Source of the DNA: an archaeon
GTDB taxonomy: Archaea; Iainarchaeota; Iainarchaeia; Iainarchaeales; 1-14-0-10-31-34
DNA: 64,000 bases
Assembly (NCBI GenBank): GCA_043819075.1
Contig: JBDRFE010000002.1
Span: 82,653-146,652, forward strand
Reading direction: 5' to 3'
Numbering within the stretch: the first letter of the stretch is position 1; each line of letters opens with the position of its first letter. The notes under the pieces were generated by a model. The model had not been told where the DNA came from. It saw only the letters and a program-made list of their open reading frames with translations, and searched no databases. A program made the position numbers and the translations under genes. This document shows positions 4,600-36,088 of the stretch, one piece after another.

Positions 4600-4611
4600 C
4601 ACCGGCAGTCA
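4600..4611 (+). promoter_or_regulatory. CACCGG upstream motif, copy 1 (CACCGGCAGTCA)
   Basis: 54 nt before PIN ATG; identical 12-mer at 36055. Confidence 0.55.
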
Positions 4612-4653
4612 ACCATCAAAGCAAATAAAAACAGGCAAAACAAGTTTTTTTCT

Positions 4654-5079
4654 ATGCCTCAAAGAATTTACCTTGACTCAAATGTATTGATTTCTTTGTT
4701 AAGGGATGAAATTGACAAAAGCTTCAGGCTTCTTTCAGCTGAAGCACAGCAGTTTTTTGATTACGCAAGAAAGCATGGCGGCATTCTTGTTTTGTCAGAT
4801 TTGTTTTACAAAGAAATCAAAGACATAATCAAACTGGATAAAAAATCAGTAAATCAGTTTTTCTTTTCAGTTAAAGTATTTTTTGAGGAAACTGAATTCG
4901 CTGAACAAGATTTTAGAGAATCAAAAAAACTAGAATCTTTTGGAGTGCATTATCCTGACTCGCTTCATGCGGCAATTGCAATCAGGACAAAATGTAATTC
5001 TATTGCAACTTTTAATTCAAAAGACTTTAAAGGACTTAGAGAAAAGATTAAGGTTGTTGAACCAAGAGACTTTATTTGA
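4654..5079 (+). CDS. PIN-domain (VapC-like) ribonuclease
   Basis: IYLDSNVLI, E, DSLHAAIA, TFNSKDF acidic PIN tetrad pattern. Confidence 0.85.
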   Translation: MPQRIYLDSNVLISLLRDEIDKSFRLLSAEAQQFFDYARKHGGILVLSDLFYKEIKDIIKLDKKSVNQFFFSVKVFFEETEFAEQDFRESKKLESFGVHYPDSLHAAIAIRTKCNSIATFNSKDFKGLREKIKVVEPRDFI

Positions 5080-5362
5080 ATCCTTTTTCTCTCATAAATT
5101 CGTTTGCAATCCTTTCTTTTTCTTTTCTTGGAATTGAAATTGTTTTTCCATCCCAGCCTCTTGATTTAGCTTTTTTTGCCAGTCTTTTTGCAGCAGCCCT
5201 TATGTCGCTTAAATCATCGTTAAGTTTCATTAGTTCAGCTAGCTTTTCCCTTACAGCATCTTTAATGAATTCGCTTCTAGAAGAATACAATTTAGAAGAT
5301 TTAATTACTGTGTCAAGGGTTTTCACATACTCTGAATCCACAGCAACAGTTAATGTTTTCAT
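5072..5362 (-). CDS. Ribbon-helix-helix (CopG/NikR-like) protein, possible antitoxin
   Basis: TLTVAVD...LD...YSSRSEFIKDAVRE RHH signature. Confidence 0.8.
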   Translation of the reverse strand: MKTLTVAVDSEYVKTLDTVIKSSKLYSSRSEFIKDAVREKLAELMKLNDDLSDIRAAAKRLAKKAKSRGWDGKTISIPRKEKERIANEFMREKGFK

Positions 5363-5497
5363 ATTACTAACATATGAGTCAAATACTATTTAAATCTTTT
5401 TATTTTGTTTTTTTCCCGCAATGCCTTGTTATTTTAATTTTTTTTCTTTTAAACCATCTTTAAATACTTTTTCCACATAATTTTTGAGTGATTTTTT

Positions 5498-6286
5498 ATG
5501 TTTGAAGAGCATTTTGGCAAAACATTTAAGCGTGTTTTAAAAGAAATTGATGAAAAAAAAGGTTTAGTGTTTTTGGTTATTGACCCTCCTGACCAGTCTC
5601 CTGAAGAAGCAGGAATAATAGCTGAGTTAGCTGAGAAAGCAGGAGTTTCTGCTTTTGCTGTTGGAGGTTCTGTTGGAGCACAAGGCTCTACTTTAGATAA
5701 AACCATTAAAGAAATCAAATCAAATTCTTCTCTGCCTGTCATATTGTTCCCAGGAAATATTGCTACTTTAAGCCCTAAAGCTGATGCAGCTTATTTTATG
5801 TCAATGCTTAATTCAAGGGACCCTTATTTTATTTCCGGGGCGCAGACTGCTTCTTCGCTTCCAATAAAAAAAATGAAGTTAGAGACTATTCCGACTTCTT
5901 ATCTTGTTTTTGAGCCAGGAAAAGCTGTTGGCTGGATTGGCCAGGCTAATTTGATTCCAAGAGATGTTCCATACATTGGGGTGGCAGCTGCTCTGGCAGG
6001 ACAGTTCATGGGCTCTCATTTAGTTATACTTGAATCTGGTTCTGGTGCACCTTCCTGTGTTCCTCCTGAAAACGTTAAAGCAATTGCTTCTGTAATTGAC
6101 ATTCCGATTGTTGTTGCAGGAGGCGTTAAAACCCCTAAACTGGCTTTTGATGCAATTTCTGCCGGAGCATCAATTGTTCATGTCGGTACAGCAATAGATA
6201 ATGTGCATAAAAACAAATCCAAGGCATTAGAGTTAATGAAAGAGTTTGTTGCTTCAGCTGAAAAAGGCGGAAAAAACAGGAACTAG
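5498..6286 (+). CDS. Geranylgeranylglyceryl phosphate synthase (group II-like)
   Basis: VIDP, VGGS, PVILFPG, MLNSRDPYFI, LESGSGA, VAGG motifs. Confidence 0.9.
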   Translation: MFEEHFGKTFKRVLKEIDEKKGLVFLVIDPPDQSPEEAGIIAELAEKAGVSAFAVGGSVGAQGSTLDKTIKEIKSNSSLPVILFPGNIATLSPKADAAYFMSMLNSRDPYFISGAQTASSLPIKKMKLETIPTSYLVFEPGKAVGWIGQANLIPRDVPYIGVAAALAGQFMGSHLVILESGSGAPSCVPPENVKAIASVIDIPIVVAGGVKTPKLAFDAISAGASIVHVGTAIDNVHKNKSKALELMKEFVASAEKGGKNRN

Positions 6287-7167
6287 TTTTTTGCGTTTAA
6301 TTCTTTTATTGTTTCTTTTACTGCGTCTTCAGTTGAATACTTTGCTTTCCATCCCAGTTTATTTATTTTTTCTGTTGAATAATTTCTTTCCCTTACAAGC
6401 CTTTGAATGTATTCATTCCTTAAAATAGAGCTTCCTTTAAAGAAAGCATAAATTCTTGCAAGGAAAACCGGAAGCACTTTAATTTTTTTTTCTATTCCTA
6501 GTTCTTTTTGGATTAAACAATATAAGTTAACAAGTTTTTTTGGCTTTTCTTCTGCCACAATAAATGTCTCGTTTTCTGTTTCAGCTTTCTTTAAACAAAA
6601 AAGTATTGCTGAAACCAAGTCCTTGTAATAGATTACCTGAAAATTATTTTTTCCTTCGCCAATCAACGGAAACCCTTTTTTTATTAATTCAGTTATCTGT
6701 TTCCAGTACTTGTTTGGCCCTAAAACAAGTGCGCTCCGGATTATTGTAATTGGGATTAGCTCCTGGAATTCATTGACTTTTTTTTCTGCTTCAGCTTTTG
6801 TTTTCTCGTATTTTGTTTGTGGATTCAAAGAAGTGTTTTCATCCGCCTGCTTTGTTATGTTTCCCATTACCCCTACTGTACTCAAGTAAATGAATTTTTT
6901 TATTTTGAATTCAACGCATTTCTCTAAAAGCAGTTCAGTTCCTTTTACATTAACTGTATTTAATTCTTCCAGTGTTTTGCTTTCATCAAGGAGTGCTGCT
7001 AAATGAATGACTATTTCAGCTCCCTTTAATGCATCCAAATCTTTTGGGTTCAATAAATTCTGTCCTTTGCTTAAATCAAACTCTATTGTATTATGTTTTT
7101 CTTTTCTCAGCTCTTTTAAAAGCTCTTTTCCGATGAATCCAGCTGAACCAGTTACAAGAATATTCAT
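6283..7167 (-). CDS. NAD-dependent epimerase/dehydratase
   Basis: TGSAGFIG, HLAA, YEKTK (YxxxK). Confidence 0.9.
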   Translation of the reverse strand: MNILVTGSAGFIGKELLKELRKEKHNTIEFDLSKGQNLLNPKDLDALKGAEIVIHLAALLDESKTLEELNTVNVKGTELLLEKCVEFKIKKFIYLSTVGVMGNITKQADENTSLNPQTKYEKTKAEAEKKVNEFQELIPITIIRSALVLGPNKYWKQITELIKKGFPLIGEGKNNFQVIYYKDLVSAILFCLKKAETENETFIVAEEKPKKLVNLYCLIQKELGIEKKIKVLPVFLARIYAFFKGSSILRNEYIQRLVRERNYSTEKINKLGWKAKYSTEDAVKETIKELNAKN

Positions 7168-7227
7168 TTAATCACTTAAAGTTTAGGTAAAAATCTTATT
7201 ATTAATTTTATTGTATTAAATGCTTTT

Positions 7228-8037
7228 ATGCCTAGGCCTGTGAAGAAAAGAAAGTTAGTTGGTGGAAGAAAACCTTCTTCAAGAACGCCTTTGCTTAGAA
7301 GCCTCCCGGCCAAAAAACCTAAAGCGTATTCACCTCCAACCAAGATGCTTTCTTTGCTTAAAAAAACTCTTTCTGATTGGAGTTCTTTGAAGTTTAGTGA
7401 TTTTAAGTCTTTTTCTTTGCTGTCAGAAAACCAGACTATTTTTTTGTGGGGCAGGCAGCACCCACTAAGAAAAGAGTTTATTTTTGGCAAAGGGCTCGCA
7501 CATCCTTTAGTTTCGCTTTTGGTTGCAAACAAAATTGTTGTTGAAAGAAATAAAACTTTAAAACAAATTGCAATAGAAGCATCTGAAATTCTTTCAAAGC
7601 GCTTTCATAGGCCTTTTAAGTTAAGTGAAAATTTTGTGAATTTAGTTAACAAAATTTTTCGGTTAAGGTCGCGTGAAGAACTGCAAAGAAAAGGAAAATG
7701 GGGCGGGGCAAGAGAAGAATTGTCTGATGCTATGAGAGCATCAATTATTAATGACTTAAAAACTTCTCGCTTGTCAATAAAAAAAATTGCAGAAAAATGT
7801 GGTGTTTCTTGGTTTTCAGTGTATTCACTTGGTGTTAATGAAGAAATCATAAAACCCAAACTAAACGAAAAGAGAGGTGTTAGGGTTCCTTTGGAAAAAG
7901 AAGCTCTTATCAGAAAACTCATTGAACAAGGAGAGCTGAATGATAAGCAGATAGCAGAACAAGCTGGCGTAAGCCATTATACAGTTTATATAAAAAGAAC
8001 AGGAAAAAACTATTACAAGCGCGCATCTTCTGCCTGA
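7228..8037 (+). CDS. Hypothetical protein, basic N-terminus, C-terminal tandem HTH-like motifs
   Basis: SIKKIAEKCGVS and NDKQIAEQAGVSHYTV. Confidence 0.6.
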   Translation: MPRPVKKRKLVGGRKPSSRTPLLRSLPAKKPKAYSPPTKMLSLLKKTLSDWSSLKFSDFKSFSLLSENQTIFLWGRQHPLRKEFIFGKGLAHPLVSLLVANKIVVERNKTLKQIAIEASEILSKRFHRPFKLSENFVNLVNKIFRLRSREELQRKGKWGGAREELSDAMRASIINDLKTSRLSIKKIAEKCGVSWFSVYSLGVNEEIIKPKLNEKRGVRVPLEKEALIRKLIEQGELNDKQIAEQAGVSHYTVYIKRTGKNYYKRASSA

Positions 8038-8078
8038 TTAAACATTTATTATTAATTTATTCCTTATAAAGTTAATTC

Positions 8079-9137
8079 ATGCAAAAAGATTTAATTCAGA
8101 TTGACGGCCGCTCTGGCGGGCAATGCCTTAGGACAGCAATTTCTTTGTCTTCTGTGCTGAAAAAGCCTGTTCTAGTATTCAATATTCGTGCAAACAGGCC
8201 TAAGACAGGCTTAGCCCAACAGCATTTAACCGGCTTGAATACTCTGGCAAAAATTTCTCGCGCAAAAGTAAAAGGAAATTTTTTGGGTTCAAAAAAAATT
8301 GTTTTTTACCCAAAAGAACTAAAAGACGGCAATTATTCTGTTAACATCGGCACAGCAGGCTCTATTACTTTATTGTTGCAGTCTTTAACCCTTCCATTGG
8401 TTTTTTCTGAAGCAAAAGCTTCTTTTAAAATTTTAGGCGGAACAGATGTTCCGTTTGCGCCTTCATTTAATTACACAAAAGACGTTTTTTTCCCGTTTAT
8501 TTCTTCTATGGGAGCAAAATTTTCTCTGGATTTGAAGAGAAGAGGTTATTACCCTGAAGGCAAAGGATTTGTTTTTTTCTCTAAGGCTTCATCTAATCTT
8601 CCGTTAAAACCGTTTTATAAAGTTGAACAAGGCAGGCTGAAATTCATTAAAATTATTTCGCATTCAACCGGTCTGCCAAAAGAGGCTTCAGCTAATATGC
8701 TGGCTTCAGCAAAAAAAACCCTTATAGAAAAGCTGTCCCCTGATTTTGAGGAAGTAACTGAATTCAATGAAGCAATAGATGAAAAAGGCGCTGGAATAAC
8801 TTTGATTGCATTTTTTGACGACAAAACAAGAATTGGGGTAAGTGCAGTGCAGGAAAAAAACAAGCGCCCGGGAAAGCTTGCGGCAGAAGAATTAATTAAA
8901 GAAATTGGGTCAAAAAAGCCTGTTGACATGCATTTATCCGACCAGTTAATTCCTTTCATGGCTTTAGCTAAAGGGCATTCAACTCTTGAAACCTCTTGTT
9001 TAACCCATCATACTTTAAACAATATTTCTGTTGCAGAAAAATTCCTTGACATAAAATTTGAGGTAAAAGGAAAAATAAGCGAGCCGGCTGAAATTTCTGT
9101 TGAAGGAATCTCTTTCAGGGGAACAAAAAATGAATAA
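8079..9137 (+). CDS. rtcA: RNA 3'-terminal phosphate cyclase
   Basis: GGQCLRTA, IRANRP..GL..QH, TAGSITL, RRGYYP.G.G, DMHLSDQL catalytic His. Confidence 0.95.
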   Translation: MQKDLIQIDGRSGGQCLRTAISLSSVLKKPVLVFNIRANRPKTGLAQQHLTGLNTLAKISRAKVKGNFLGSKKIVFYPKELKDGNYSVNIGTAGSITLLLQSLTLPLVFSEAKASFKILGGTDVPFAPSFNYTKDVFFPFISSMGAKFSLDLKRRGYYPEGKGFVFFSKASSNLPLKPFYKVEQGRLKFIKIISHSTGLPKEASANMLASAKKTLIEKLSPDFEEVTEFNEAIDEKGAGITLIAFFDDKTRIGVSAVQEKNKRPGKLAAEELIKEIGSKKPVDMHLSDQLIPFMALAKGHSTLETSCLTHHTLNNISVAEKFLDIKFEVKGKISEPAEISVEGISFRGTKNE

Positions 9138-9303
9138 GCTGTTCACCAAACTAATTGTTTTTCTTTTAATTGCATTGCTTTTGCTTATTTTTTTTCTTTC
9201 AATTTTAGGCTACACTGACATAATTAATTTCTGGATTGCAGCAGTTATTGTGACAGTTTTTGCTTTTGTTGTACTGCCAAAACTAAATAAACAAGTTAAT
9301 TAA
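9130..9303 (+). CDS. Small two-TM membrane protein
   Basis: Two hydrophobic stretches; ATG overlaps rtcA end. Confidence 0.55.
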   Translation: MNKLFTKLIVFLLIALLLLIFFLSILGYTDIINFWIAAVIVTVFAFVVLPKLNKQVN

Positions 9304-10131
9304 TAGTTCAGGGAAAGCAAGGTTAATTAATACTCCTACAAAAATAAATGGCCCGAATTTTGGCAGGTTCCTGTAAACAAATATTTCTTTTATTCCTGCT
9401 TTTTCCAGTTCTTTTTTTTCTTTTTCCCCTAAAATCCCTTTTATCCCTAAATTCAGTTTTTTTATTGTGTTTTTTTCTTCGAATTCAAATGCAATTAATT
9501 CATCTTCTTCCATTTCTTTTAATGGAATTTTTTTGAGGAAAAAATTTTTTTTAATCCCTTTTTCTAATGCAATGAATACAAGTGAAATGCTTAATGGAAT
9601 CATTAAAACAATGATTATTTTTTCCATTCCCATTGAATAAATCAGGAAAAAATAAAACAAAAGCAGTATTCCGATTCCAGCGGCTTTTTTTATTCCTTCA
9701 AGGTTTTCTTTTAATTTAATTCCTTTTCTTGCATACTTTATTGTGTAATATACCCCGTAAAATACAAGTGAGCTTATTCCAGCCCAGATTAATGCGTTTA
9801 ATACAAAAATGTTTAACGGAAATACTCCTGCGTCAAATGGCAGAAGCAGTGCAATCCCGGTAAATAATTTTACGTCTCCTCCGCCGATTTTGCCTAAAAA
9901 ATACATTCCATACCCTAAAACAAAAACCAGTATTCCGACAGAAAAAAGTTCCAAGAACTTTTCAATTGAAATTTCTTTTCCTAACTCAAATAAATTCAAG
10001 AGAATTCCTGCTGCAATCATGGGATAAGTTATTTTGTCAAAAATATATCCTGTCTTGAAATCAGTGTAAGCCCCTAACAGGCTTCCGATTAAAATCACTG
10101 CCTGCCTTAACAATAAAATCATTGTAATCAC
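9283..10131 (-). CDS. A24-family prepilin/prearchaellin peptidase
   Basis: YTDFK Asp, GGGDVK motif, multi-TM, C-terminal PKFGPFI. Confidence 0.9.
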   Translation of the reverse strand: MITMILLLRQAVILIGSLLGAYTDFKTGYIFDKITYPMIAAGILLNLFELGKEISIEKFLELFSVGILVFVLGYGMYFLGKIGGGDVKLFTGIALLLPFDAGVFPLNIFVLNALIWAGISSLVFYGVYYTIKYARKGIKLKENLEGIKKAAGIGILLLFYFFLIYSMGMEKIIIVLMIPLSISLVFIALEKGIKKNFFLKKIPLKEMEEDELIAFEFEEKNTIKKLNLGIKGILGEKEKKELEKAGIKEIFVYRNLPKFGPFIFVGVLINLAFPELLINLFI

Positions 10132-10192
10132 TTTAAATTAAACAAAGAAAAGGTTAAAAAAGACTGAAACCATTATTTTTTCAGGTAATTAA

Positions 10193-10399
10193 ATGCCTTT
10201 AACAAAAAGAAACATTAAACCGCGTTTTAGGATTGATGAATGGAATTTAAGGAGTTCTGCAGACCAGAGCACCCAAAAGCTTGCAAGAAAGTTCAGTAGC
10301 CAGCCAAGGCATTCGCTGAAAGTGTTCTTGAATATTGCAAGAAGCCATGGCTTTACTGCTTCTGAAGCAATGAAATTGTGGCAAAAAACGCAAAAATAA
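10193..10399 (+). CDS. Small basic hypothetical protein
   Basis: Fills intergenic gap, AGGT SD-like before ATG. Confidence 0.5.
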   Translation: MPLTKRNIKPRFRIDEWNLRSSADQSTQKLARKFSSQPRHSLKVFLNIARSHGFTASEAMKLWQKTQK

Positions 10400-10400
10400 T

Positions 10401-10931
10401 TTATTCAAAGAATTCTTTGCTTACTATTCCCATTAAAGCCATTAACACAGCCATTTCATTGAATTTTGTGCGGTCAACTTTTCTTTTAGTTAATTCTCCT
10501 ACTGCGCCCTGTTTTTTTCCAATGTCTTTTTCTTTTCCGAATAATTTTGCAAAAGCAGTATTAACATCGTCTTTTCCCTGTAGCAGTAAATAAGTCGCTT
10601 TTTTTGGGTACTTAAATAAAGGGCTTGTTCCGAAAAAAAATTCTTTTCCGTCAAATATTGCTGCAACAGTTATTTCCATGTAATCCAGCCCTGCAGGAAA
10701 ATAATGTATTCCTGATTCAATTCCCACAGAATAATTACAATTGCCTTGCGTGAACGCTTTTTCTGCCCTTGTTTTTGCCCCATTAACTATTTCAATTAAA
10801 TTTAATGGCTGTTCCCTGATTGTAGTTTTAGTTTCAGTTCCTTTTACTTCAACTTTTTTGAAATAGTTTTCAAAAGCATTTTTTACTGCCTTTATTTTTA
10901 CAGGGTTAGCTGAACCAACATTTATTTTCAT
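10401..10931 (-). CDS. yjjX: Inosine/xanthosine triphosphatase (YjjX family)
   Basis: VGSANPVKI.AV, EQP, GA.TRA, GIESG, GAVG.LT. Confidence 0.9.
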   Translation of the reverse strand: MKINVGSANPVKIKAVKNAFENYFKKVEVKGTETKTTIREQPLNLIEIVNGAKTRAEKAFTQGNCNYSVGIESGIHYFPAGLDYMEITVAAIFDGKEFFFGTSPLFKYPKKATYLLLQGKDDVNTAFAKLFGKEKDIGKKQGAVGELTKRKVDRTKFNEMAVLMALMGIVSKEFFE

Positions 10932-10935
10932 TTAA

Positions 10936-11604
10936 TCACCTTTTTTGTTTTTTTTCTATTCTTCTCCTTGTTTCCTGTATTCTTGTTTCTTCTATTTCTT
11001 TTAATCTTTTCCAGACTGTTGCGGTCTGGAGTTTTCTCCTAAAATACTGTAATCCTTTTTTTGTCATTCCGCCTTCAGGTTTTAAATAGCCTTTTTGCAT
11101 CATTTCTTTTTCCCATGCAGGTATTTGTGTTGCAGTTCTTTTTTCTGGAGGAGACGCCCACAACAATAATGTTGCATCTTCTCCGTGGCTTTTGATTAAT
11201 TGTAATGTACTTGCATAACCCTCTTTTTTAGAATCCAAATGTAATGATCTATTAATAGCAGTATCTGCTGTTTCTTCAGGGCTTGCATTTGTGGGTTCAG
11301 TAAAGTTGCTTCTCATTTTCCTGCGTTCCTTTATTTTTTGCTTTTCTATTTTTGGATTTTTCTGGTACCTGTTTCCGTCTGGAAACATTATTAGGTTTTG
11401 GAGGCCGTGCCTTATTTCATGTTCATCTAATTTTTGGTTTCCTGTTAAATGCACTGCGTGACTGGCGGGATCATAGTAACCAAAATAATTTACAAAGTTC
11501 TTGTACTTACGAGGCATCAAATTTTTTACCGGCACCCCTGCTATCTGAGAAAAACGTCTGAAAAGCCTATCAGTGTATGTTTTTCTTCTAACAGGTTTTT
11601 TCAT
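10936..11604 (-). CDS. Hypothetical basic protein with HExxH motif
   Basis: GYYDP...HEIRHGLQ; GGTGA SD-type junction. Confidence 0.6.
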   Translation of the reverse strand: MKKPVRRKTYTDRLFRRFSQIAGVPVKNLMPRKYKNFVNYFGYYDPASHAVHLTGNQKLDEHEIRHGLQNLIMFPDGNRYQKNPKIEKQKIKERRKMRSNFTEPTNASPEETADTAINRSLHLDSKKEGYASTLQLIKSHGEDATLLLWASPPEKRTATQIPAWEKEMMQKGYLKPEGGMTKKGLQYFRRKLQTATVWKRLKEIEETRIQETRRRIEKKQKR

Positions 11605-11608
11605 CTTT

Positions 11609-12955
11609 TCACCTGAATTTCACTTTTTTTTGTTTTCCGAATTTTTTCATTAATTTTTCCATTGCACCTTTTTTTTGCAATGCTTCCGGGTCAGACAGTT
11701 TTTTCATCTGCTTGAACATTTTCTTCATTTTCTTGTATTGCTTGATTAATTCTCTTACATCTTCTTCTTTTTTTCCAGAACCTTTTGCTATTCTTAAAAT
11801 CCTTGAATGATTTAATACTTCAGGATCTAATTTTTCTTTTTTTGTCATTGAATCCATTATTTGCTTGAATGAATCCAGTTTTTCTTCACCTAACTGCATT
11901 TGTTCTTTTGGAATCTGCTGGCTTAAGCCCATCATTTCCATTACCTTATTCAATGGACCCATTTTTCTTGCAGCCTTTAATTGCTTGTAAAATACATCTA
12001 AATTGAATTCTTTTTTCATTAATTCTTCTAAGTCAACTTCCTCGAATTCAGTTGCTTCTTTGACTTTTTCCAATAACCCTTGTAAATCGCCGTAACCCAT
12101 GATTCTGCTTAAATACCTTGTTGCATCAAATTCTTCCAAGTCATTCATTTTTTCTCCGGTTCCAATAAAATAAACCGGCGCTTTAGTAATAGAACAGGCA
12201 ATTAATGCTCCTCCTCCTTTGGCTGAACCGTCCATTTTAGTCAAAATTACGCCGTTTACTCCGACGCTTTCATGGAATGCTTTGGTTTGTTTTCCTGCTA
12301 TCTGGCCTATATCTGCTCCCAGTACAAGCAGGGTTAAATCCGGCTTTAAAGCTGAATTAATTTCTTTTATTTCTTTAACTAATTTTTCATCCAAAGAGCT
12401 TCTTCCGGCTGAATCAACGATGATTAAATCAAATTCCCTGAATTTTTTCATTCCTTCTTCTACGACTTTTGCGGCATTTTTTTCTTCTTCTAATCCAAAA
12501 AAAGGCACTTCAATTTTTTCTGACAGCTGTTTTAACTGCTCGAAAGCCGCAGGACGAAAAGTGTCAGCGCAGATTAATCCGACTTTTTTTCCTCTGTTTG
12601 AATAATATTTTGCCAGCTTGCCTGAAGTAGTTGTTTTTCCTGCTCCAAACAATCCAAGCATTAAAATTTTTTCAGGAGTTTTTTCTAATACAGGTTTTTT
12701 TCCGCCTAAAGCTTCTGCTAAAATATCGTAAGTGTTTTTTACAATAAACTCTCTTCTGTTGATTCCTGTTGGAAGGTCTTTGAATGCTGTTTCTTCAATT
12801 CTTTTTGTTAGCTGAAGCACTAATTCTATTTGCACATCAGATGAAATTAATGCTCTCTGAATTTCTTTGCTTACTTCTTTTACTGTATTCTTGTCTAACA
12901 AAGAAGAATTCCTTATTTTTTCCATTGCATTCCTTAACTGTTCGCCTAAACCCAT
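11609..12955 (-). CDS. srp54: Signal recognition particle protein SRP54
   Basis: GAGKTTT, DTFRPAA, DSAGR, TKMDGSAKGGG, Met-rich M domain. Confidence 0.97.
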   Translation of the reverse strand: MGLGEQLRNAMEKIRNSSLLDKNTVKEVSKEIQRALISSDVQIELVLQLTKRIEETAFKDLPTGINRREFIVKNTYDILAEALGGKKPVLEKTPEKILMLGLFGAGKTTTSGKLAKYYSNRGKKVGLICADTFRPAAFEQLKQLSEKIEVPFFGLEEEKNAAKVVEEGMKKFREFDLIIVDSAGRSSLDEKLVKEIKEINSALKPDLTLLVLGADIGQIAGKQTKAFHESVGVNGVILTKMDGSAKGGGALIACSITKAPVYFIGTGEKMNDLEEFDATRYLSRIMGYGDLQGLLEKVKEATEFEEVDLEELMKKEFNLDVFYKQLKAARKMGPLNKVMEMMGLSQQIPKEQMQLGEEKLDSFKQIMDSMTKKEKLDPEVLNHSRILRIAKGSGKKEEDVRELIKQYKKMKKMFKQMKKLSDPEALQKKGAMEKLMKKFGKQKKVKFR

Positions 12956-27515: not shown

Positions 27516-27530
27516 GTTTTTTTATAAAAA

Positions 27531-27938: not shown

Positions 27939-28028
27939 CTATTTTTTCTTTTTTTTCTTTACCGTTTTTTTTGCCTTAGTTTTTGTTTCTGGCTCGCAAC
28001 AGCATTCACATTCACAATCTGAACCCAT
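27939..28028 (-). CDS. 29-aa Cys-rich/Lys-rich peptide (absent from ORF track)
   Basis: MGSDCECECCCEPETKTKAKKTVKKKKKK*, preceded by AGGTGA SD. Confidence 0.6.
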   Translation of the reverse strand: MGSDCECECCCEPETKTKAKKTVKKKKKK

Positions 28029-28038
28029 TTTTATCACC

Positions 28039-28368
28039 TTATGCAACCAATGACTTTAAAGTCAGTTTTTTTGTTACCCCGTTGTTTCCCCATAGTTCTG
28101 CAAAACTCTCTGATTCATCTTTTGCAATCCAAATCTGCCTGTTGGTTGGATGAACATGGCCTTTGTTAGTGTAAGTTATATCGTATTCCACTAAAATCCT
28201 GTCTTTTCCTATCTGAACCAGCTTAAAAACATTTTTTCCGTTGCCGTTTGATTCAAATAAAGCTCCTTCTTCTATTTCAAGCTCTCTTGTCTCGGTTTTT
28301 TTTTGGAAAGGGGGATTCCAGTCTTGTTTTAGTTCTTTTACTTCAATTAATGCCTTCATTTTTACCAC
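28039..28368 (-). CDS. Hypothetical protein
   Basis: 109-aa ORF; no motif recognised. Confidence 0.6.
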   Translation of the reverse strand: MVKMKALIEVKELKQDWNPPFQKKTETRELEIEEGALFESNGNGKNVFKLVQIGKDRILVEYDITYTNKGHVHPTNRQIWIAKDESESFAELWGNNGVTKKLTLKSLVA

Positions 28369-28427
28369 AAAAAAGAGTATGCGCGTTTAATTAATAATCC
28401 TTTCTCTTTTTGAATTCACGGAAGAAT

Positions 28428-29402
28428 TTAAAAATACTTGATTTTAAGTATTTCAGAGTAAAGGATGAAATCATAGTCTTTGATTATTTCAGAAAATTTT
28501 TCTTTCATTTCTTTTATTATTCCCGTGAACTCTTTGTGAGAGGAAGCAACTAATTCTATTTCAAAGTCTGCAAATCCGATGCTCTGGTCAACATAAATTA
28601 TTCTTTCATGTTCTAATGCAAAGTCAACAAGTTTATTGTATTTTTTCATGTCCTTTAAGTTAAAGTTAACTTTATAGTAATTCAATCCAAATAAGTCAAA
28701 ATTGAATTTTATTCTGAAGCCCTGGATTAAACCCTGTTTTTTCATTTTGTCCAAGGCATATTTTGCCTGAATCGGGGTAATATTGAGTTTTTTTGCGATT
28801 TCGATTGACGGAATCCTTGCATCAGCTGAAATGATTCTCAGGATTTCCCTTTCTTTTTCTGAAATCTTGATTCTTTCTTTTTTTCCTGAAACAATTTTTA
28901 TTCTTTTCTTGTTTTCATGGTTAAGGAAAGCAAGGTTGAACTGGGTTAATTCAGTGTAAACTGAAACATTCATTTTCTGGAACAAATTCCTGTAATTTAG
29001 CATGAATTTTTTCCAGAATTCATTGAATTCAAAAGAATTTTTTGCCCAGATTACAAAACACAAATCGAATTCGCCGCCAATTTTTCCAAGCCACCAGATC
29101 ATTTTGTTTTCGTGCAGGTAATTCATTAATTCGTTTTCCTGTTCAGGGTTAATGTACTGGTACTTTAAATAAACTCTGAACTGTTCAAAGCCAAGCAAAG
29201 AAGTGTCAATTGCAGTGTAATACCCTAAAATGATTTTTTTTTCTTCAAGTTTTTTTATCCTGTAATTCACTGTTCCTGGCTTCAGCCTTGCTTTTTTTGC
29301 CAGCTTGTTAACAGAAATCCTTGAATTCAGGTCAAGCTCAAACAAAATTTCTCTGTCCTTTGAATCCAAGCCGAGTTTAATGAAAACATCATCCAATGCC
29401 AT
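28428..29402 (-). CDS. Tandem (double) Lrp/AsnC transcriptional regulator
   Basis: Two HTH-RAM units: LDSKDREIL..L..NSRIS..LAKK and EREIL....DARIP..EIAKKL. Confidence 0.88.
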   Translation of the reverse strand: MALDDVFIKLGLDSKDREILFELDLNSRISVNKLAKKARLKPGTVNYRIKKLEEKKIILGYYTAIDTSLLGFEQFRVYLKYQYINPEQENELMNYLHENKMIWWLGKIGGEFDLCFVIWAKNSFEFNEFWKKFMLNYRNLFQKMNVSVYTELTQFNLAFLNHENKKRIKIVSGKKERIKISEKEREILRIISADARIPSIEIAKKLNITPIQAKYALDKMKKQGLIQGFRIKFNFDLFGLNYYKVNFNLKDMKKYNKLVDFALEHERIIYVDQSIGFADFEIELVASSHKEFTGIIKEMKEKFSEIIKDYDFILYSEILKIKYF

Positions 29403-29491
29403 GTTTAATCAAAACAATAAAAACAATTAAAATATTATCTTTTTGATTAAAAATCTGTTAAAAACTTTTAATAGGCTGATAATGTTAAGTT

Positions 29492-30268
29492 ATGTATATG
29501 ACTGGATTTAATTCTGTTGATTTTGTCTGGGATACTTGTATTGAGTTCCTTTACGACAAGGAACTTTATGCTGAGTCCATTTCCGAATTGCTTAAGGAAC
29601 AGGGTGCAAAAAAAATCCTTGACTGTTCCTGCGGGACAGGGTTTCCGTCAATCCAGCTTGCCAAAAGAGGATTTAATGTAACTGCCTCTGATGCAAGCTC
29701 CAGAATGCTTTCAAGGTTCAGAAAAAACATGGAAAAAGAAAAGCTTTCAATCCCTTTTTTTAAGTTAAAATGGAATAAGCTTGACTCTTTTTTTGATTCA
29801 GGCTTTGATGCAGTGTTGTGCAGGGGAAACTCTCTTCCTTATGCTGTTTCGTGGGAGAAAAATTCAGTTGACCTTGAAAAAGCAAGAAAAGAAATTTTTG
29901 TTTCACTCAAAAACATGTTTAACCTGCTGAAAGAAAACGGTTTTTTGTATGTTGACCTTTCTCCAAGAGAATCTTTTTCCCCTTTAAACACTGTTTTTAT
30001 CCACAAATTCAGGCCAAAAGAAATTGACGGAAAAACTGTTTTAATTGACTGGAAGATAACCCACTTTTTGGATAAAGGAAAGAGAATCTGGAATGCAAAC
30101 CTTCTGGTTAAAGAAACTAAAAAAAATTTTTCTCTGCGTTTTGAAGGCTATCATTTAAGGCACGCTGAACTGCTTTCAATTCTAAAAGAAGTTGGTTTTA
30201 AGAGAATATTTCCTTATGTTGATATTGAAGGGGAAAAAACTTATGATGTTTTTCTTGCATTCAAGTGA
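29492..30268 (+). CDS. Class I SAM-dependent methyltransferase, glycine/sarcosine N-methyltransferase-like
   Basis: ILDCSCGTG, VTASDAS..ML, FDAVLCRGNSL. Confidence 0.8.
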   Translation: MYMTGFNSVDFVWDTCIEFLYDKELYAESISELLKEQGAKKILDCSCGTGFPSIQLAKRGFNVTASDASSRMLSRFRKNMEKEKLSIPFFKLKWNKLDSFFDSGFDAVLCRGNSLPYAVSWEKNSVDLEKARKEIFVSLKNMFNLLKENGFLYVDLSPRESFSPLNTVFIHKFRPKEIDGKTVLIDWKITHFLDKGKRIWNANLLVKETKKNFSLRFEGYHLRHAELLSILKEVGFKRIFPYVDIEGEKTYDVFLAFK

Positions 30269-30274
30269 TGTTTT

Positions 30275-30616
30275 ATGAAATGCTTTCTTAAATCAAAAAT
30301 CCACAGGGCAACAGTAACTGAAGCAAACTTAAATTACATTGGAAGCATTTCAATTGACTCTGCTTTAATGCAGAAAGCAGGAATAGAGGAATTTGAAAAA
30401 GTTTTAGTTTGCAATATAAACAACGGGGAAAGAATTGAAACTTATGCAGTAAAGGCTGAAGCGGATTCAGGGACAATCTGCCTGAACGGGGCAGCAGCAA
30501 GAAAATTCCTTGCAGGGGATTTGGTGATAATCCTTGCATTTGAATATTCAGACAAGCCAGTCAAGCCAAAAATAGTTTTAGTGAATGAAAAAAACGCGTT
30601 TGCTGAATTCCTGTGA
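30275..30616 (+). CDS. panD: Aspartate 1-decarboxylase (pyruvoyl-dependent)
   Basis: KSKIHRATVT.A.LNY.GSI.ID self-cleavage site, NGERIETY, CLNGAAAR. Confidence 0.96.
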   Translation: MKCFLKSKIHRATVTEANLNYIGSISIDSALMQKAGIEEFEKVLVCNINNGERIETYAVKAEADSGTICLNGAAARKFLAGDLVIILAFEYSDKPVKPKIVLVNEKNAFAEFL

Positions 30617-30620
30617 AAAT

Positions 30621-30653
30621 CACCGGAAACCTGCCCTGAAAACATTTTTAAAT
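30621..30653 (+). promoter_or_regulatory. CACCGG motif copy 2 plus TATA-like box of nurA
   Basis: CACCGG 53 nt before ATG; TTTTTAAAT at 30645. Confidence 0.55.
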
Positions 30654-30673
30654 TAACAGAACTTGAATCTATT

Positions 30674-31774
30674 ATGAATGTTAATTCCCTGATATCTGAT
30701 GCAGTTACAAGAATAAAAGGCACTGAAAGCAAAAAAAAGCTTACCGCAAAAAAATTAACTGAATTAAAAAAACAAAAATTAACTGCATTCAGTTCCCCTG
30801 AACTGCTTGAAGAAAACTTTTTTTATGAAGTTTCTCCGACAGAATTAAACCATAAAATTGCAGGAACTGACTCTGGTTTTGTCGGCAAAAGAATGCATTC
30901 AGTTGACATAATCTTAATCAAAACTGTTTCAGCAATTTTTTCCTACAAAAAAAACAAGTTAATGAAAACAGAATACTTTCCTTCACCTACAAGTTTTCCG
31001 AAACCATTTATTTCTTCCAATACATTAGAAAACGATGAGTTTTTATGCAACCAGTCTTTGCTGAGGCTGCAGGAAGAAATTTCTTGTTCAAAAAAAGTAA
31101 TCGAAGAATTCAAGCCGGATTACTGTTTTATTGACGGAAGCATTATTCCCCAGTATGCCGACAAGGCAAGAAAAGGCTCTGCATTAAACTCTGATTATTC
31201 TTCTTTAATCAAATTGTTTGAATCATTGTATGAAACAGCTGAAAAAAATTCCTGCAGTTTAATTGCAACAGTAGAAGATTCAAGGGGCTCTAGATTCCGG
31301 AGTATTTTGCAGAAAGAAATACTGGAAAAAAACAATCTGCTTGCATCAAATGAATTAGATTGTTTTTTTGATTCAAGCCTGCTTGATTATTTGCTGTCAA
31401 AAAACCAGAGAAGCTTTTGCTTTAATTACACTTCTTCAATTAAAGAGCATCCTGTGTTAAACGATTTCAGCGAAAAATGGGCTTCAAAGATTAAAGCATT
31501 TTATTTGAAGCCTTCAATGCTTGACAGGCCGTTGAGAATAGAGTTTTTGCATAACGGAAAAAACCTTTCAGGGTACTGCAATGAAATTGCTTCAATTGTT
31601 TTGCCGCTTTCTTCTCTGCACAAAGAATACGCTTATCCAAGTGTTTTGATTGAAGCAGACTTGAGGGCAAGATTAAAGCAGAATGAAGTTGAAATTCTTT
31701 TCAATAAAATCCAGGACAAGCTTGGAAGAGAAAACGCTTTTCTTGCATTAAGAAGGAATTCAAGGCCTTTTTAA
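30674..31774 (+). CDS. nurA: DNA double-strand-break repair nuclease NurA
   Basis: IAGTDSG, FIDGSI, PLRIEF, YAYP.VLIEAD..A; near herA. Confidence 0.88.
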   Translation: MNVNSLISDAVTRIKGTESKKKLTAKKLTELKKQKLTAFSSPELLEENFFYEVSPTELNHKIAGTDSGFVGKRMHSVDIILIKTVSAIFSYKKNKLMKTEYFPSPTSFPKPFISSNTLENDEFLCNQSLLRLQEEISCSKKVIEEFKPDYCFIDGSIIPQYADKARKGSALNSDYSSLIKLFESLYETAEKNSCSLIATVEDSRGSRFRSILQKEILEKNNLLASNELDCFFDSSLLDYLLSKNQRSFCFNYTSSIKEHPVLNDFSEKWASKIKAFYLKPSMLDRPLRIEFLHNGKNLSGYCNEIASIVLPLSSLHKEYAYPSVLIEADLRARLKQNEVEILFNKIQDKLGRENAFLALRRNSRPF

Positions 31775-31827
31775 TGAAAACAAAACTGTTTTATATAGTT
31801 TGTTATATATTTGCTATAGTGAATTAT

Positions 31828-32049
31828 GTGCCTGAGGTAACTACTATCCAATTAGAAAAAAATGTCGTGGAAAAACTGAAAAAATCAAAAAGGTATTCTA
31901 GGCAGACTTACTCTGAGTTAATCAGCAATATGCTTAAAGCTTATAATTTTCACAGAAACCAGTATGACGAGTTTCTCCACAAAATCCAGCAGGAGAAAAT
32001 GAAAGAATTATGGGACAATGATGAAGATGAGGAATGGGAAAAAGCTTGA
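31828..32049 (+). CDS. Putative antitoxin
   Basis: TTIQL....KLK......TYSELI; C-terminal LWDNDEDEEW overlaps toxin start. Confidence 0.7.
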   Translation: MPEVTTIQLEKNVVEKLKKSKRYSRQTYSELISNMLKAYNFHRNQYDEFLHKIQQEKMKELWDNDEDEEWEKA

Positions 32050-32356
32050 AGCCGGAGAAGTAGTTTTAACTCAAATTCAATTTGCAGATTCTTTTGAGAC
32101 AAAAAAAAGGCCTGTGGTTGTTTTGTTTGAAGAATTCACCAATGTTATTGTCGCAGGGATTACAAGCAACCTTGAAATGAAGGGAATTCCTTTGAGCAAA
32201 AAGGAAGGTGCAATAAAAGACAGCGTCATTAAAACAAATTATATTTTTACGACATCTGAAAAAGCGATATTAAAGAAATTGTTTAAATTAAGTAAAGAAA
32301 AAAGAATTATTTTATACAATGAACTAAATCAAAAATTTGAAAAACTAAAAACCTAA
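32018..32356 (+). CDS. MazF/PemK-family toxin
   Basis: GEVVL...F.D...KKRPVVVL, AGITSN, DSVIK. Confidence 0.82.
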   Translation: MMKMRNGKKLEAGEVVLTQIQFADSFETKKRPVVVLFEEFTNVIVAGITSNLEMKGIPLSKKEGAIKDSVIKTNYIFTTSEKAILKKLFKLSKEKRIILYNELNQKFEKLKT

Positions 32357-32399
32357 TCAATTAAATTGTTTTCCCATATTATTTTTTTATTGATTTTAA

Positions 32400-33077
32400 A
32401 TGAACAAAAAATTAAAAGTAAAAGCAGTTTTTTTTGATTTATGGAATACTATTGCTTTCACTGACTCAAAAAAAGAGGTTTTCAGGGAAATGCAGATCCG
32501 CTTAGGATTGAATGAATTAACTCATTCACAGTTTTTGCAGGAATGCGAGAACGCAATAATGACAGAAGAATTTGAGTCAATTGACCACTTGAATGCAAGG
32601 CTGTTAAATCATTTTAATGTTCCGACAGGAGAAATTTTGCTTGGAGATCTGGATTTTATGTGGAATCATGCCTTAAAAAACAATAAATTGTTTCCTGAAA
32701 CAATTAAAGCCCTTGAAAAAACTAAAAAGCATTTTAAGACTGCATTAATTTCTAACTGCGAAAACTTTGGCGTTAAATCACTTTCAAAAGATTTTTCTTT
32801 AAGCAATTATTTTGATGAAGTTGTTTTGTCATGTGAAACAGGCTTGTTAAAGCCTAACCCAAAAATTTTTTTGCTTCCCTTGAAAAAACTTAAAATAAAG
32901 CCCCAGGATGCAGTAATGATTGGAGATTCAATGAGAACTGATATGGGCGGGGCAAAAAGGGCTGGGATGAAAACAATTTTAATTGACAGGAAAGGAAAAG
33001 CAAAAGGAAAAAACCTTTCAGTGGATGCAGTAATTAATTCTTTGAATGAACTGCCTGAAATAATCAGCTTCAAATAG
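32400..33077 (+). CDS. HAD-superfamily hydrolase
   Basis: FFDLWNTI, ISN, KPNP.IF, IGDS..TD..GA. Confidence 0.9.
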   Translation: MNKKLKVKAVFFDLWNTIAFTDSKKEVFREMQIRLGLNELTHSQFLQECENAIMTEEFESIDHLNARLLNHFNVPTGEILLGDLDFMWNHALKNNKLFPETIKALEKTKKHFKTALISNCENFGVKSLSKDFSLSNYFDEVVLSCETGLLKPNPKIFLLPLKKLKIKPQDAVMIGDSMRTDMGGAKRAGMKTILIDRKGKAKGKNLSVDAVINSLNELPEIISFK

Positions 33078-33088
33078 TTTTGGTGTTT

Positions 33089-33120
33089 CACCGGCATTGC
33101 ACACTGAAAGCCTTTAAATA
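33089..33120 (+). promoter_or_regulatory. CACCGG motif copy 3 plus TATA-like box of herA
   Basis: CACCGGCA 53 nt before ATG 33142; TTTAAATA at 33113. Confidence 0.55.
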
Positions 33121-33141
33121 ACCTCTAATCATTTTTTGGTT

Positions 33142-34686
33142 ATGGAAGAAAAACAGGAAATCGGCACAGTTATTTCTACAATGGATTCTCCTAGCCCATC
33201 CAAGCTAAGTTTTGTAGTTGACTCAGACAAGCCTGTTCACCGAGGCCAGTTTGTTGAACTGGATTACTCTGAAGGAACATTAATTGCTTTAGTGAACAAC
33301 GTAGTGAAAACAAACCGTTATTTTGAGAGAGCTGATTCAGTAAAAGAATTTGAATCAAATGGTTTAAGCCTCAAAGAACAGTTTCCTACCACTGAATGGG
33401 AATTTTTGATTGCAGAAACAAGACCTTTAGGTGTTTTCACTGAAAGCCTAACCAAGCGCTCTACTTTTCCTCCTTCTCCTGGCATTAAAGTCAGGGTTGC
33501 TTCGGATAAAAACCTGAAAAAATTTTTTGGTTTTGATGAAAAAAACGGATTAAGTCTTGGAAAAGTCGAATACCATGACACTGAAGTAAAAATTAATTTA
33601 ACTAAATTAATGCAAAAGCATGTTGCTGTTCTTGCAATGAGTGGTGCAGGGAAATCATATTTTGTCGGCGTCTTATTGGAGGAACTGCTTGAAAGAAAAA
33701 AAGAGCAGGGAAGGATTGCAACAATAGTGTTAGATGTTCACGGCGAATACGGTTCTTTTTGCGAGCCAACAACAGACAAAAAATTCAAAGACTATTCTTC
33801 TAAAACAAAATTAGTTAATGCAAGAAACATCCGCATCGGCGTATCAAAGCTTTCAGCAGGATTGTTTTCTTCAATTCTTCCGGGTTTAAGCGCTCCCCAG
33901 AAAAGGGATTTAGGAAGAATTATTTTTAAATTACAGCAGAAAATGAAGGAAGGTCTTGGACCGTATTCTTTGAATGACATTAAAAGAGAATTATCCAAAG
34001 ACGAGGAAGTAAAAGATGTAACAGAAAAAGCCTTGAATTCGTGGTTTGCTGAATTAGAGGAACTGAATTTGTTTTCTGAAACAGATTCTCCTTCTTTAGA
34101 GGATTTGGTTGAGCCAGGCAAAATGACTGTAGTTGATTTTTCTGATATAATTCATTTAAAGAAAAAACAGATTATAGTGAATTATTTTGCAAACAAATTG
34201 TTTGCCTTGAGAAGAAAAAAACAGATTCCGCCTTTTTTCCTTGTTCTCGAGGAAGCTCACCAGTTTATTCCAGAGCGAATGTCAAAAGAAGGCGCGATTG
34301 CAAGAAGCATTTTAGAGACAATTGCAAGAGAAGGACGAAAATTTGGTGCGGCTTTATGTTTGATTTCCCAGAGGCCAATTCAGTTAAGCACTACAGTTTT
34401 ATCTCAATGCAATACTCACATCATTTTGCGCATTACAAATCCTTATGACTTAAAGCATATCGGAGAAAGCTCTGAAGGACTAGATTCCCGTTCACTTGAA
34501 ATGATTACTGTTTTAAGAGTCGGAGAAGCATTAATCTTGGGGGAAGCAACAGGCTTTCCATTGTTTTTTAAGGTAAGGAAAAGGCTTTCAGCTGAATCAA
34601 GGCACGAGAAATCAATTGAACAAAGTGCAATAGACTTTGAGGATTCAGCAGATGAAAGAGAAAACGAGGCAAGACAGTTTCTTTAG
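33142..34686 (+). CDS. herA: HerA bipolar DNA helicase/translocase
   Basis: HAS barrel, HVAVLAMSGAGKS, DVHGEY, LEEAH, AREGRKFG, SQRP. Confidence 0.93.
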   Translation: MEEKQEIGTVISTMDSPSPSKLSFVVDSDKPVHRGQFVELDYSEGTLIALVNNVVKTNRYFERADSVKEFESNGLSLKEQFPTTEWEFLIAETRPLGVFTESLTKRSTFPPSPGIKVRVASDKNLKKFFGFDEKNGLSLGKVEYHDTEVKINLTKLMQKHVAVLAMSGAGKSYFVGVLLEELLERKKEQGRIATIVLDVHGEYGSFCEPTTDKKFKDYSSKTKLVNARNIRIGVSKLSAGLFSSILPGLSAPQKRDLGRIIFKLQQKMKEGLGPYSLNDIKRELSKDEEVKDVTEKALNSWFAELEELNLFSETDSPSLEDLVEPGKMTVVDFSDIIHLKKKQIIVNYFANKLFALRRKKQIPPFFLVLEEAHQFIPERMSKEGAIARSILETIAREGRKFGAALCLISQRPIQLSTTVLSQCNTHIILRITNPYDLKHIGESSEGLDSRSLEMITVLRVGEALILGEATGFPLFFKVRKRLSAESRHEKSIEQSAIDFEDSADERENEARQFL

Positions 34687-35660
34687 TGATGTTTTGGTTT
34701 TCTTTTAAGAGTAAGAATGCCTGATTTTTTTTTGCCTCTGCGCCCTGTTTTGTATCTGAATCCAAGCTGGTCAAATACTGCCCTGTGCATTCTGAATCCT
34801 GCTGTTGCAATTCTTTGTTTTTCTCTTGCAATAATACTGTTTTCTTCAGGAGTTCTTTTTTTTGGATCAACCAGCCTTATTTTTCCAATGCTTTTTTTAT
34901 TTTTGGGCATTCCTTTTAATAGTTTTTTATTTTCTACCAGCCTGTTCATTACAACATTTTCAGACGGCGTCATGTATGGAAGAGTTCTCGGGTTTCTTGC
35001 TTCAACTTTTATGTTGTCTGAAGCTGCTGAAACAAGAGTTTCTGCCATGAATCTGAATGCAGATGTCGCTTTTTTGCGCAAACCTAGTTTTGTCAGTGTT
35101 TTGGAAAATTCTTCTATTTCTTTTCTATTAATGCTTCCCTGAAAGTTTCCTATCACTAAAACAGGTTTTCCGTTTTTTGTAAACCTGAACCCTAAATTAA
35201 GTCTGGCTATCGGAAACTTTTCAGTTCCTTCTATTAGGTTTATTGCCAGCATGTTTCCGTCTTCGACACTCTGGCCTAAAGCAAACCTGAATTTTCCTAT
35301 TGTTTTTCCTGAAATTTTTCCCAAGGTTTCTGCAAAATTTTTTAGGACAAACCGCATGTTTGCTTTGTTTGCGCTTGCATCATCTTCATATGTTCTTTTA
35401 TATTGGCGCATAGAAGGAGAATCTGTTATAATCTGTAAACTGTGCCTGATTATTGTTCGAACAACTTCAAGGCTGCTTTTTTTGACTGAATTTAAAATTA
35501 GTTCTGAATCGTTTCTTGAAATTAATTTTGTTTTGTCATGGTAAGTTAAACTATAAAAAACATGTTCAGCAAATTTTTTTGCTTCCTGCCTTGGAATTCC
35601 TGTTTTGTTTAATTCTCCTTCGAATTCTCTTTGGGAAACAAATAATTGTGATTTTGCCAT
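34683..35660 (-). CDS. Hypothetical protein with very basic C-terminus
   Basis: 325-aa ORF, no family recognised. Confidence 0.6.
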   Translation of the reverse strand: MAKSQLFVSQREFEGELNKTGIPRQEAKKFAEHVFYSLTYHDKTKLISRNDSELILNSVKKSSLEVVRTIIRHSLQIITDSPSMRQYKRTYEDDASANKANMRFVLKNFAETLGKISGKTIGKFRFALGQSVEDGNMLAINLIEGTEKFPIARLNLGFRFTKNGKPVLVIGNFQGSINRKEIEEFSKTLTKLGLRKKATSAFRFMAETLVSAASDNIKVEARNPRTLPYMTPSENVVMNRLVENKKLLKGMPKNKKSIGKIRLVDPKKRTPEENSIIAREKQRIATAGFRMHRAVFDQLGFRYKTGRRGKKKSGILTLKRKPKHH

Positions 35661-35700
35661 AAAACAATTGTTTATTTTAAGTTAATAATGCTTCCTTTAA

Positions 35701-35952
35701 TCAAAGCCCTAATTTTTTCAGCCTTGTAATCGGGTCGTCGTTAATGTATTCTTCTAATGCTTTCTCCAATTCATCGTCTTTTTCGTAAGCCAAGCCTGAT
35801 TTTTTTTTCCCGCTCATGTCTTCAATTCTCAGCCTGACGGAATCCCTTACTGCTTCAGTCCGAGAAGCATAAAACCCTTTTTTGACAAGTTTATCAATTT
35901 CCTCTATATCTTTTTTTGAAAAATTAATTAACACAGAAATCCTTGAAGCCAA
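35701..35952 (-). CDS. Ribbon-helix-helix (CopG-like) regulator
   Basis: IDKLVKKGFYASRTEAVRDSVR; GGTGG SD, TTG start. Confidence 0.82.
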   Translation of the reverse strand: MASRISVLINFSKKDIEEIDKLVKKGFYASRTEAVRDSVRLRIEDMSGKKKSGLAYEKDDELEKALEEYINDDPITRLKKLGL

Positions 35953-36054
35953 TCAAACCACCAGTAAAACAGAACGCAATCAGAATTAATAAATATATAC
36001 TTTAATACAATCTTTATATATTTTTTATATATTAAGCTGTTTTTTTCAGATTTT

Positions 36055-36088
36055 CACCGGCAGTCATGTGTCTGCTTTTGTTTTTAAA
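36055..36088 (+). promoter_or_regulatory. CACCGG motif copy 4 plus TATA-like box
   Basis: CACCGGCAGTCA 55 nt before ATG 36110; TTTTTAAA at 36081. Confidence 0.55.

Follow-up and report, generated by a model that had tools for sequence, protein, structure and literature searches.

A window of 64,000 nucleotides from the genome of an archaeon of the Iainarchaeales (GenBank assembly GCA_043819075.1, contig JBDRFE010000002.1, positions 82,653 to 146,652 of the forward strand) contains four intergenic copies of the hexamer CACCGG, each placed ahead of a gene: a PIN-domain (VapC-like) gene, the nuclease gene nurA, the helicase gene herA, and a gene for a protein of 495 amino acids with a predicted family-B DNA polymerase (PolB) fold (Table 1). 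The hexamer is the core of a longer promoter element, referred to here as the box, which recurs in fixed orientation and at a narrow distance from the TATA box ahead of repair, recombination, replication and selfish-nuclease genes, and which is very probably a regulatory element.

The source genome (1.24 Mb, 35% G+C, 75 contigs) holds 140 copies of CACCGG; nine lie in the window, where 3.57 would be expected, and none of 100 shuffled sequences reached this count. A first-pass annotation, made from the letters alone, had taken the four sites for the operator of a DNA-damage or recombination regulon. The coordinates, flanks and distances to the start codons given there are borne out, as is the TATA-like word behind each site, which begins 24 to 28 nt past the first C (about 23 to 27 nt had been claimed). 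The gene labels hold as well. Those for PIN, NurA and HerA are confirmed by Pfam; the PolB-fold protein finds no match in Pfam or NCBIfam, and its structure model (predicted local distance difference test score, pLDDT, 89) resembles archaeal family-B polymerases in Foldseek (E 1e-8, template modelling score about 0.5). A profile built from 21 of its orthologues matches a PolB chain weakly (E 0.018), and the protein is present in 36 of the 41 genomes searched.

Table 1. Boxes, TATA words and genes of the four promoters; positions are those of the window.
Feature	Position	Strand	Remarks
Box before PIN gene	4600..4615	+	17.1 bits; -54 from ATG
Weak TATA-like word, PIN promoter (AATAAAA)	4624..4630	+	
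PIN-domain (VapC-like) gene, convergent with ribbon-helix-helix (RHH) gene 5072-5362	4654..5079	+	Pfam PF01850
Box before nurA	30621..30636	+	25.1 bits; -53
TATA box of nurA	30645..30652	+	
nurA nuclease gene	30674..31774	+	Pfam PF09376
Box before herA	33089..33104	+	20.2 bits; -53
TATA box of herA	33113..33120	+	
herA helicase gene	33142..34686	+	Pfam PF01935, PF09378
Box before PolB-fold gene	36055..36070	+	15.4 bits; -55
TATA box of PolB-fold gene	36081..36088	+	
PolB-fold gene (495-aa protein with predicted family-B DNA polymerase fold)	36110..37597	+	Profile and structure model

Sequence, Orientation and Spacing of the Box

The hexamer described in the first pass is real at all four sites, but it is merely the core of a longer, degenerate box; an exact search for CACCGG overlooks most members, radA among them. 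The box is about 16 bp long, asymmetric and one-directional, with the consensus CASYGGMARYSYRCYC. It emerged as the top motif when 55 regions upstream of radA and nurA genes from relatives were searched without a seed, and these regions alone, with the source genome left out, served to train the matrix used for scoring. They represent the 30 best-scoring loci out of the 38 radA and 39 nurA genomes with matches, a selection in which the most distant relatives are under-represented. In 46 of the 55 regions, a box site is followed by a TATA word at 24–30 nt. An earlier conception of the box as an 11-bp palindrome was ruled out by the asymmetric matrix of the relatives.

The box lies about 24–28 nt ahead of the TATA box in the source genome and 24–30 nt among orthologues. 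TATA words in the source genome peak at -29/-30 from the called starts, and of the ten sense copies of CACCGG that lie no more than 120 nt from a called start (1269 genes examined), six sit at -53 to -57; the PolB-like site is absent from this count because the gene caller placed the start of that gene later. At radA, which has a long leader, the box is far from the ATG and nevertheless keeps its usual distance to the TATA box; hence, the TATA box, and not the start codon, is the anchor of the spacing.

Genes Preceded by the Box in the Source Genome

The gene set was derived with a simple gene caller (1319 genes), and the TATA pattern used for ranking was widened after the first results on intergenic sites had been obtained. 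Among the 32 intergenic sites of at least 13 bits, 16 have a TATA word at 24–27 nt, as compared with 2, 0 and 0 at control distances and with none of 98 coding sites. When all 1319 genes are ranked, 17 score at 13.5 bits or above, one reaches 11.5 bits, and the remainder stay at or below 9.1 bits. Ten members act in repair or replication: radA, nurA, herA, hef, hel308, mcm, priL, nrdD, a PolB-type exonuclease gene and the PolB-fold gene. The others are six free-standing LAGLIDADG genes and the PIN gene; roughly one member in three is a selfish nuclease. Eight free-standing LAGLIDADG genes exist in this genome, and the two non-members hold 12-bit sites (at -53 and -43) without a matching TATA word. 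The check proposed in the first pass, a genome-wide look at positional and functional enrichment, thus came out in favour, with TATA-phased sites and top ranks rich in repair genes.

The tight spacing to the TATA box and the fixed orientation would also be expected if the box were part of a special basal promoter class that an alternative general factor recognises without the help of a signal-dependent regulator. However, the box starts about 25 nt upstream of the TATA box, beyond the B recognition element (BRE), its spacing varies between 24 and 30 nt among orthologues, and only 17 of the 1319 genes carry it, all of which makes this explanation quite improbable.

Conservation at Orthologues and Taxonomic Range

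The box is kept upstream of orthologues of radA, nurA and the PolB-like gene, in line with the second check put forward in the first pass. At held-out PolB-like orthologues (25 of 30 loci were scorable), a site of at least 12 bits is present at -51 to -67 in 19 of 24 relatives, and the reverse strand gives none in 25. For herA, conservation is narrower: five of 27 scored loci have the box, all in the family of the source genome, a sixth site reaches 9.6 bits, and herA genes at a greater evolutionary distance are not themselves preceded by a box. Held-out homologues of the PIN gene from other genomes carry it in two of three cases, and held-out homologues of the LAGLIDADG genes, collected by protein search, have a site of at least 13 bits at eight of 13 non-intein loci (reverse strand: none of 13). 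The LAGLIDADG family itself is patchily distributed (14 of 41 genomes), as expected for a mobile gene.

The strict pattern of box plus TATA word occurs in 74 of 132 Iainarchaeota genomes, with up to 22 rows per genome as compared with 0–3 for a reversed control. It is rare or missing in the families f2 (1/14), f30 (1/16), f33 (0/5) and f31 (0/2); in f33, radA sits behind another gene, and its promoter lies outside the scored range. A sample of 80 sites from relatives was taken from 150 of 435 rows (some of them duplicated), with sites of the source genome, several already identified ones and some others left out. Twenty-five of these precede repair or replication genes, with three instances of rad50. 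Another 24 stand before mobile or defence genes (16 LAGLIDADG, three TnpB, two DUF488, and a single case each of PIN, Bro-N and restriction-modification), and the remaining 31 carry no label, are unverified or probably match by chance. Three genomes taken in full present the same mix of genes, including several PIN and TnpB genes. In one relative (G071), five copies of an IS200/605 TnpB gene each have a strong box in front (L332, L347, L364, L365, L367).

Beyond the Iainarchaeota, a species scan across GTDB yielded at least 108 stretches; the matches listed include Iainarchaeota, Micrarchaeota and bacterial-labelled records, some of the latter encoding proteins more than 70% identical to the RadA protein of the source genome. 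In Micrarchaeota, the box is found with at least 10 bits within 700 nt of radA at 15 of 34 loci (reverse strand: none of 34); five of these genomes had been chosen through motif matches, and the evenly drawn set gives 11 of 30. When the regions upstream of radA in Micrarchaeota were searched de novo for motifs, the box was not among the results, because radA is the second gene of an operon in many of them; it became visible once the regions were widened to 700 nt. A scan of viral contigs gave a single match with no clear gene behind it.

Several short genes were seen behind these sites. Many Micrarchaeota (L286-L305) have a small gene for an acidic protein of 70–120 amino acids between the box and radA, and several Iainarchaeota (L216, L240, L449, L452, L460) likewise encode, downstream of the box, a short protein that may be akin to the acidic one; those of L216 and L240 are without a Pfam match.

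Chance, or the recent copying of one promoter within the genome, has a negligible probability as an explanation of these data. Some local copying has taken place, since the promoters of the PolB-fold gene (36051-36071) and of a LAGLIDADG gene at G000:C2:38226 (G000:C2:38166-38186; G000 is the source genome) have 21 identical bases in common, a likeness that suggests promoter capture. However, the box is kept at orthologues whose proteins are only 30–50% identical and in a second phylum, and those LAGLIDADG box carriers that can be aligned are just 25–34% identical to one another. The unseeded motif search, the TATA phase, the held-out orthologues and the Micrarchaeota loci together refute an origin of the pattern by chance or copying.

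Relation to Known Damage-Response Elements

The regulation of the damage response in Archaea has been established mainly for the Sulfolobales. According to published reports, the targets of their DNA damage-responsive element (DDRE; ANTTTC, or ultraviolet (UV) box) include nurA, herA and a degenerate-looking PolB gene (PMC6061795, PMC5817253, PMC9738581), and the activator is Orc1-2, a non-initiator Orc1/Cdc6 paralogue (PMC6061795, PMC9738581) from an ancient, faster-evolving, non-origin clade (PMC3914693). Like the DDRE, the box is a non-palindromic element upstream of BRE and TATA box, and the candidate regulator discussed below is of the same class, an Orc1/Cdc6 paralogue. Nevertheless, the two elements differ in four respects. 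The core is GG here and TT in the DDRE, and 2571 of 3000 shuffles match the matrix no worse than the DDRE consensus does; a homology seen by eye in a shared 3' TACTC failed this matrix test. Counted from the ATG, in genes that are apparently leaderless, the core of the box begins at -53 to -56, about 9 nt further out than the -44 to -39 from the start site given for the DDRE (PMC5817253). The promoter of the candidate regulator has no element, unlike that of Sulfolobus orc1-2. Finally, radA, mcm, nrdD and many selfish nucleases belong to the gene set here, in contrast to the regulon of the Sulfolobales.

A second precedent is the TTTCACTTTCA box, which precedes UV-induced genes of Halobacterium sp. 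NRC-1 and radA of other haloarchaea and of Methanospirillum, and whose regulator is given as unidentified in that report; a near-match precedes a transposase gene (PMC2556686). Both boxes stand upstream of the TATA box at radA, about 50–60 nt before the start codon, and share TTTCAC and a later CA. The three central bases differ, however, and the box described here has a further, C-rich 3' half. With eight of 11 positions compatible, the fit of the Halobacterium 11-mer to the matrix is marginal (167 and 255 of 3000 shuffles as good; p about 0.06–0.09). Because the tests of sequence, position and autoregulation failed for the DDRE and the sequence fit to the Halobacterium box is marginal, the box has not been filed under either element.

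Among the elements compared, the closest sequence likeness is to the mini-origin recognition box (mini-ORB) of Pyrococcus, an origin element bound by Orc1/Cdc6 and a 13-mer (PMC1904270), whose middle is fitted by the core CASYGGMA (23 and 27 of 3000 shuffles as good; p about 0.008). In contrast to ORB and mini-ORB elements, the box occurs as single promoter copies and not in arrays, and the invariant TTCC is not kept. No ORB arrays were seen beside cdc6 genes in 12 loci.

In the bacterial SOS regulon, one signal acting through the LexA box controls recombinase, repair, toxin and mobile-element genes, and the gene set described here, with its mobile nucleases and toxins, resembles that regulon. 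One might therefore regard the box as a repressor operator that is released on damage. Unlike a LexA operator, however, it has an asymmetric matrix, low scores on the reverse strand and an activator-like position that ends before BRE. A non-palindromic site in a single orientation, ending about 10 nt before the TATA box, argues against a repressor; archaeal repressors usually overlap the core promoter (PMC5817253). We consider a repressor operator improbable.

A Model for the Reading of the Box

With the box, its orientation, its spacing, its gene set and its conservation established, we suggest, with a probability of roughly 0.6, that it is the putative binding site of a single activator, possibly the short Orc1/Cdc6 paralogue, which would turn the genes on upon DNA damage or fork stalling. 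That the box is an activator site is likely, because it is located upstream of BRE and TATA box in fixed orientation and phase and overlaps neither of them, which can be set against the positions described for archaeal activators and repressors (PMC5817253). DNA damage or replication stress is a trigger with somewhat better than even prospects, given the gene set and the precedents in Sulfolobus and Halobacterium; the idea of the first pass of a shared regulon is hence supported, but its damage trigger is deduced from a gene set that includes mcm, priL and nrdD. The identity of the binder is a more tentative matter, and the short paralogue has a chance of roughly a third. In mechanistic terms, the activator would dock at the box upstream of BRE and TATA box when DNA is damaged or forks are stalled, and repair, recombination and replication genes would be switched on together. 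The candidate binder, an Orc1/Cdc6 paralogue of 375 amino acids, is a monomeric winged-helix protein and would be suited to an asymmetric, ORB-like site. Homing endonuclease, TnpB and toxin genes that carry the box would be expressed while recombination is active.

Two Orc1/Cdc6 paralogues are encoded in the source genome: the short, 375-aa protein (G000:C25:9377-10504) and a long one (G000:C73:22954-24153). The short paralogue evolves faster (39% mean identity, compared with 48% for the long one), scores higher than its counterpart with three of four PRK00411 models, every score being below the cut-off, and has a conserved ISM and arginines in its recognition helix; both are nearest to Orc1-1 chains in the PDB. 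Across 30 Micrarchaeota radA loci, a box of at least 10 bits is found in 11 of the 17 genomes that encode the short paralogue and in none of the 13 without it. Two genomes of family f31, in which the short paralogue was not found, also have no match to the pattern. In two f2 genomes, a variant word, TCTCGGCCARSTACCC, precedes radA and the PolB-like gene (L080, L163, L164, L510), and the short paralogue of the f2 genomes with this word has an altered recognition helix; a covariation of site and binder in f2 is possible on this sequence evidence.

Several findings count against the model or its choice of binder. The 13 Micrarchaeota genomes without the short paralogue form one clade (support 0.999); since this is a single clade, they count as one loss, and such a clade will have lost other genes too. 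The two f31 genomes are just 85–86% complete, and the whole co-loss evidence amounts to two events. The short paralogue is present in 13 of 14 f2, 16 of 16 f30 and three of five f33 genomes, families in which the strict pattern hardly occurs. No box stands in any of 23 promoters examined for the short paralogue or in any of nine cdc6 promoters scored, and autoregulation of either paralogue has been rejected for lack of a box at their promoters. The recognition helix of the long paralogue is even better conserved. As to the trigger, mcm, priL and nrdD would fit a cell-cycle programme equally well, and rad50, rpa and hjc have no box in the ranking of the source genome; the first pass had not seen one before them either.

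That another protein reads the box, be it the long paralogue or a different transcription factor, stands at about even chances; this alternative concerns the regulator only. The near-universal occurrence of the long paralogue, its very conserved helix and the two-event nature of the co-loss speak for it. On the other side, the Micrarchaeota clade without a radA box has kept the long paralogue, which nearly all genomes searched contain, and two further candidates were rejected: an Lrp-like gene (C60), considered as an autoregulated regulator and the one transcription factor gene with a near-threshold site, which is kept in one of 29 loci, and a domesticated LAGLIDADG protein (C14), whose family is patchy, occurring in 14 of 41 genomes, a rejection that applies to the C14 family only. 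The two RHH proteins that the first pass had put forward as binders (5072-5362 and 35701-35952) flank two of the four sites, but neither has a sense box in its own promoter, and the first is convergent with the PIN gene as in a toxin–antitoxin pair. RHH dimers, moreover, usually read symmetric sites. The RHH proposal finds no support, and we regard it as very improbable.

Although a damage response is preferred here, the same single activator could serve a replication or cell-cycle programme, acting on entry into S phase or on the resumption of growth on a host. The boxes before mcm, priL and nrdD in the source genome and before recJ in two relatives are compatible with this, as is the fact that Orc1/Cdc6 proteins are replication factors. 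However, dnaG and rpa lack the box (both RHH genes and dnaG are without one in the ranking of the 1319 genes), and recurrent members in relatives, namely XPD, UvrD, a spore-photoproduct-lyase-like protein, radical-SAM proteins with a helix-hairpin-helix (HhH) motif, Bro-N and toxins, fit damage or stress better; we therefore consider a cell-cycle programme unlikely.

To extend the damage-response model further, the box might descend from an origin box and be read by an Orc1/Cdc6 paralogue that does not act as an initiator. A damage programme driven by Orc1 might then be ancient and common to the Sulfolobales and DPANN archaea, and genes for homing endonucleases, TnpB and toxins might have been wired into it repeatedly so as to cut when recombination is on. 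We regard this combined scenario as less likely than not.

In the openly accessible literature, no published account of the box, or of such a regulon in these DPANN lineages, was found. We propose that the box, which is conserved and functionally coherent, represents a further form of the promoter elements that serve the damage response in Archaea; selfish nucleases regularly belong to its gene set, and there is a candidate for its regulator. It provides a sequence handle that ties dozens of unannotated genes, including that of the PolB-fold protein, to DNA metabolism, and it points to a protein and a DNA site whose interaction is open to in-vitro work even though the organism is not in culture. 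The membership of selfish nucleases suggests that these genes time their expression to the recombination programme of the host, for which the transposase gene at the Halobacterium box is the only hint in the reports consulted.

Neighbouring Genes and Additional Observations

Directly 3' of nurA and without a gap follow a gene for a 91-aa protein and a PemK/MazF-like gene (31774-32356; Pfam PF02452), and the three are probably located on one transcript. The convergent PIN and RHH genes (window 4654-5362) overlap by eight bases, with a box at the PIN gene only. At G000:C73:22472-24153, a small gene that resembles sepF and the gene of the long Cdc6 paralogue are transcribed divergently, and a like arrangement is found near the long paralogue in genome G009.

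The radA leader in this order (upstream regions L051-L080; in the source genome G000:C2:81686-81760) is 60–125 nt long and folds into a nested hairpin whose shape is alike in several families although the bases that pair differ. Twenty leaders gave folding z values of +0.5 to -4.8 relative to base-shuffled controls; the leader is possibly a cis-regulatory RNA. At G000:C74:17517 and C15:4397, strong boxes with TATA words lead solely into open reading frames of about 30 codons, which may be relics, small proteins or small RNAs.

A 17-bp near-palindrome occurs in six copies in the source genome (G000:C19:17987, C32:8321, C59:27281, C59:27391, C60:6254, C71:4229). This repeat is separate from the box, contains the box core in one arm and lies partly beside tRNA-like sequence. 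The C71 copy is situated 23–24 nt ahead of a TATA word, upstream of a gene for a single-stranded DNA-binding protein (SSB), and repeats of this kind might seed new boxes.

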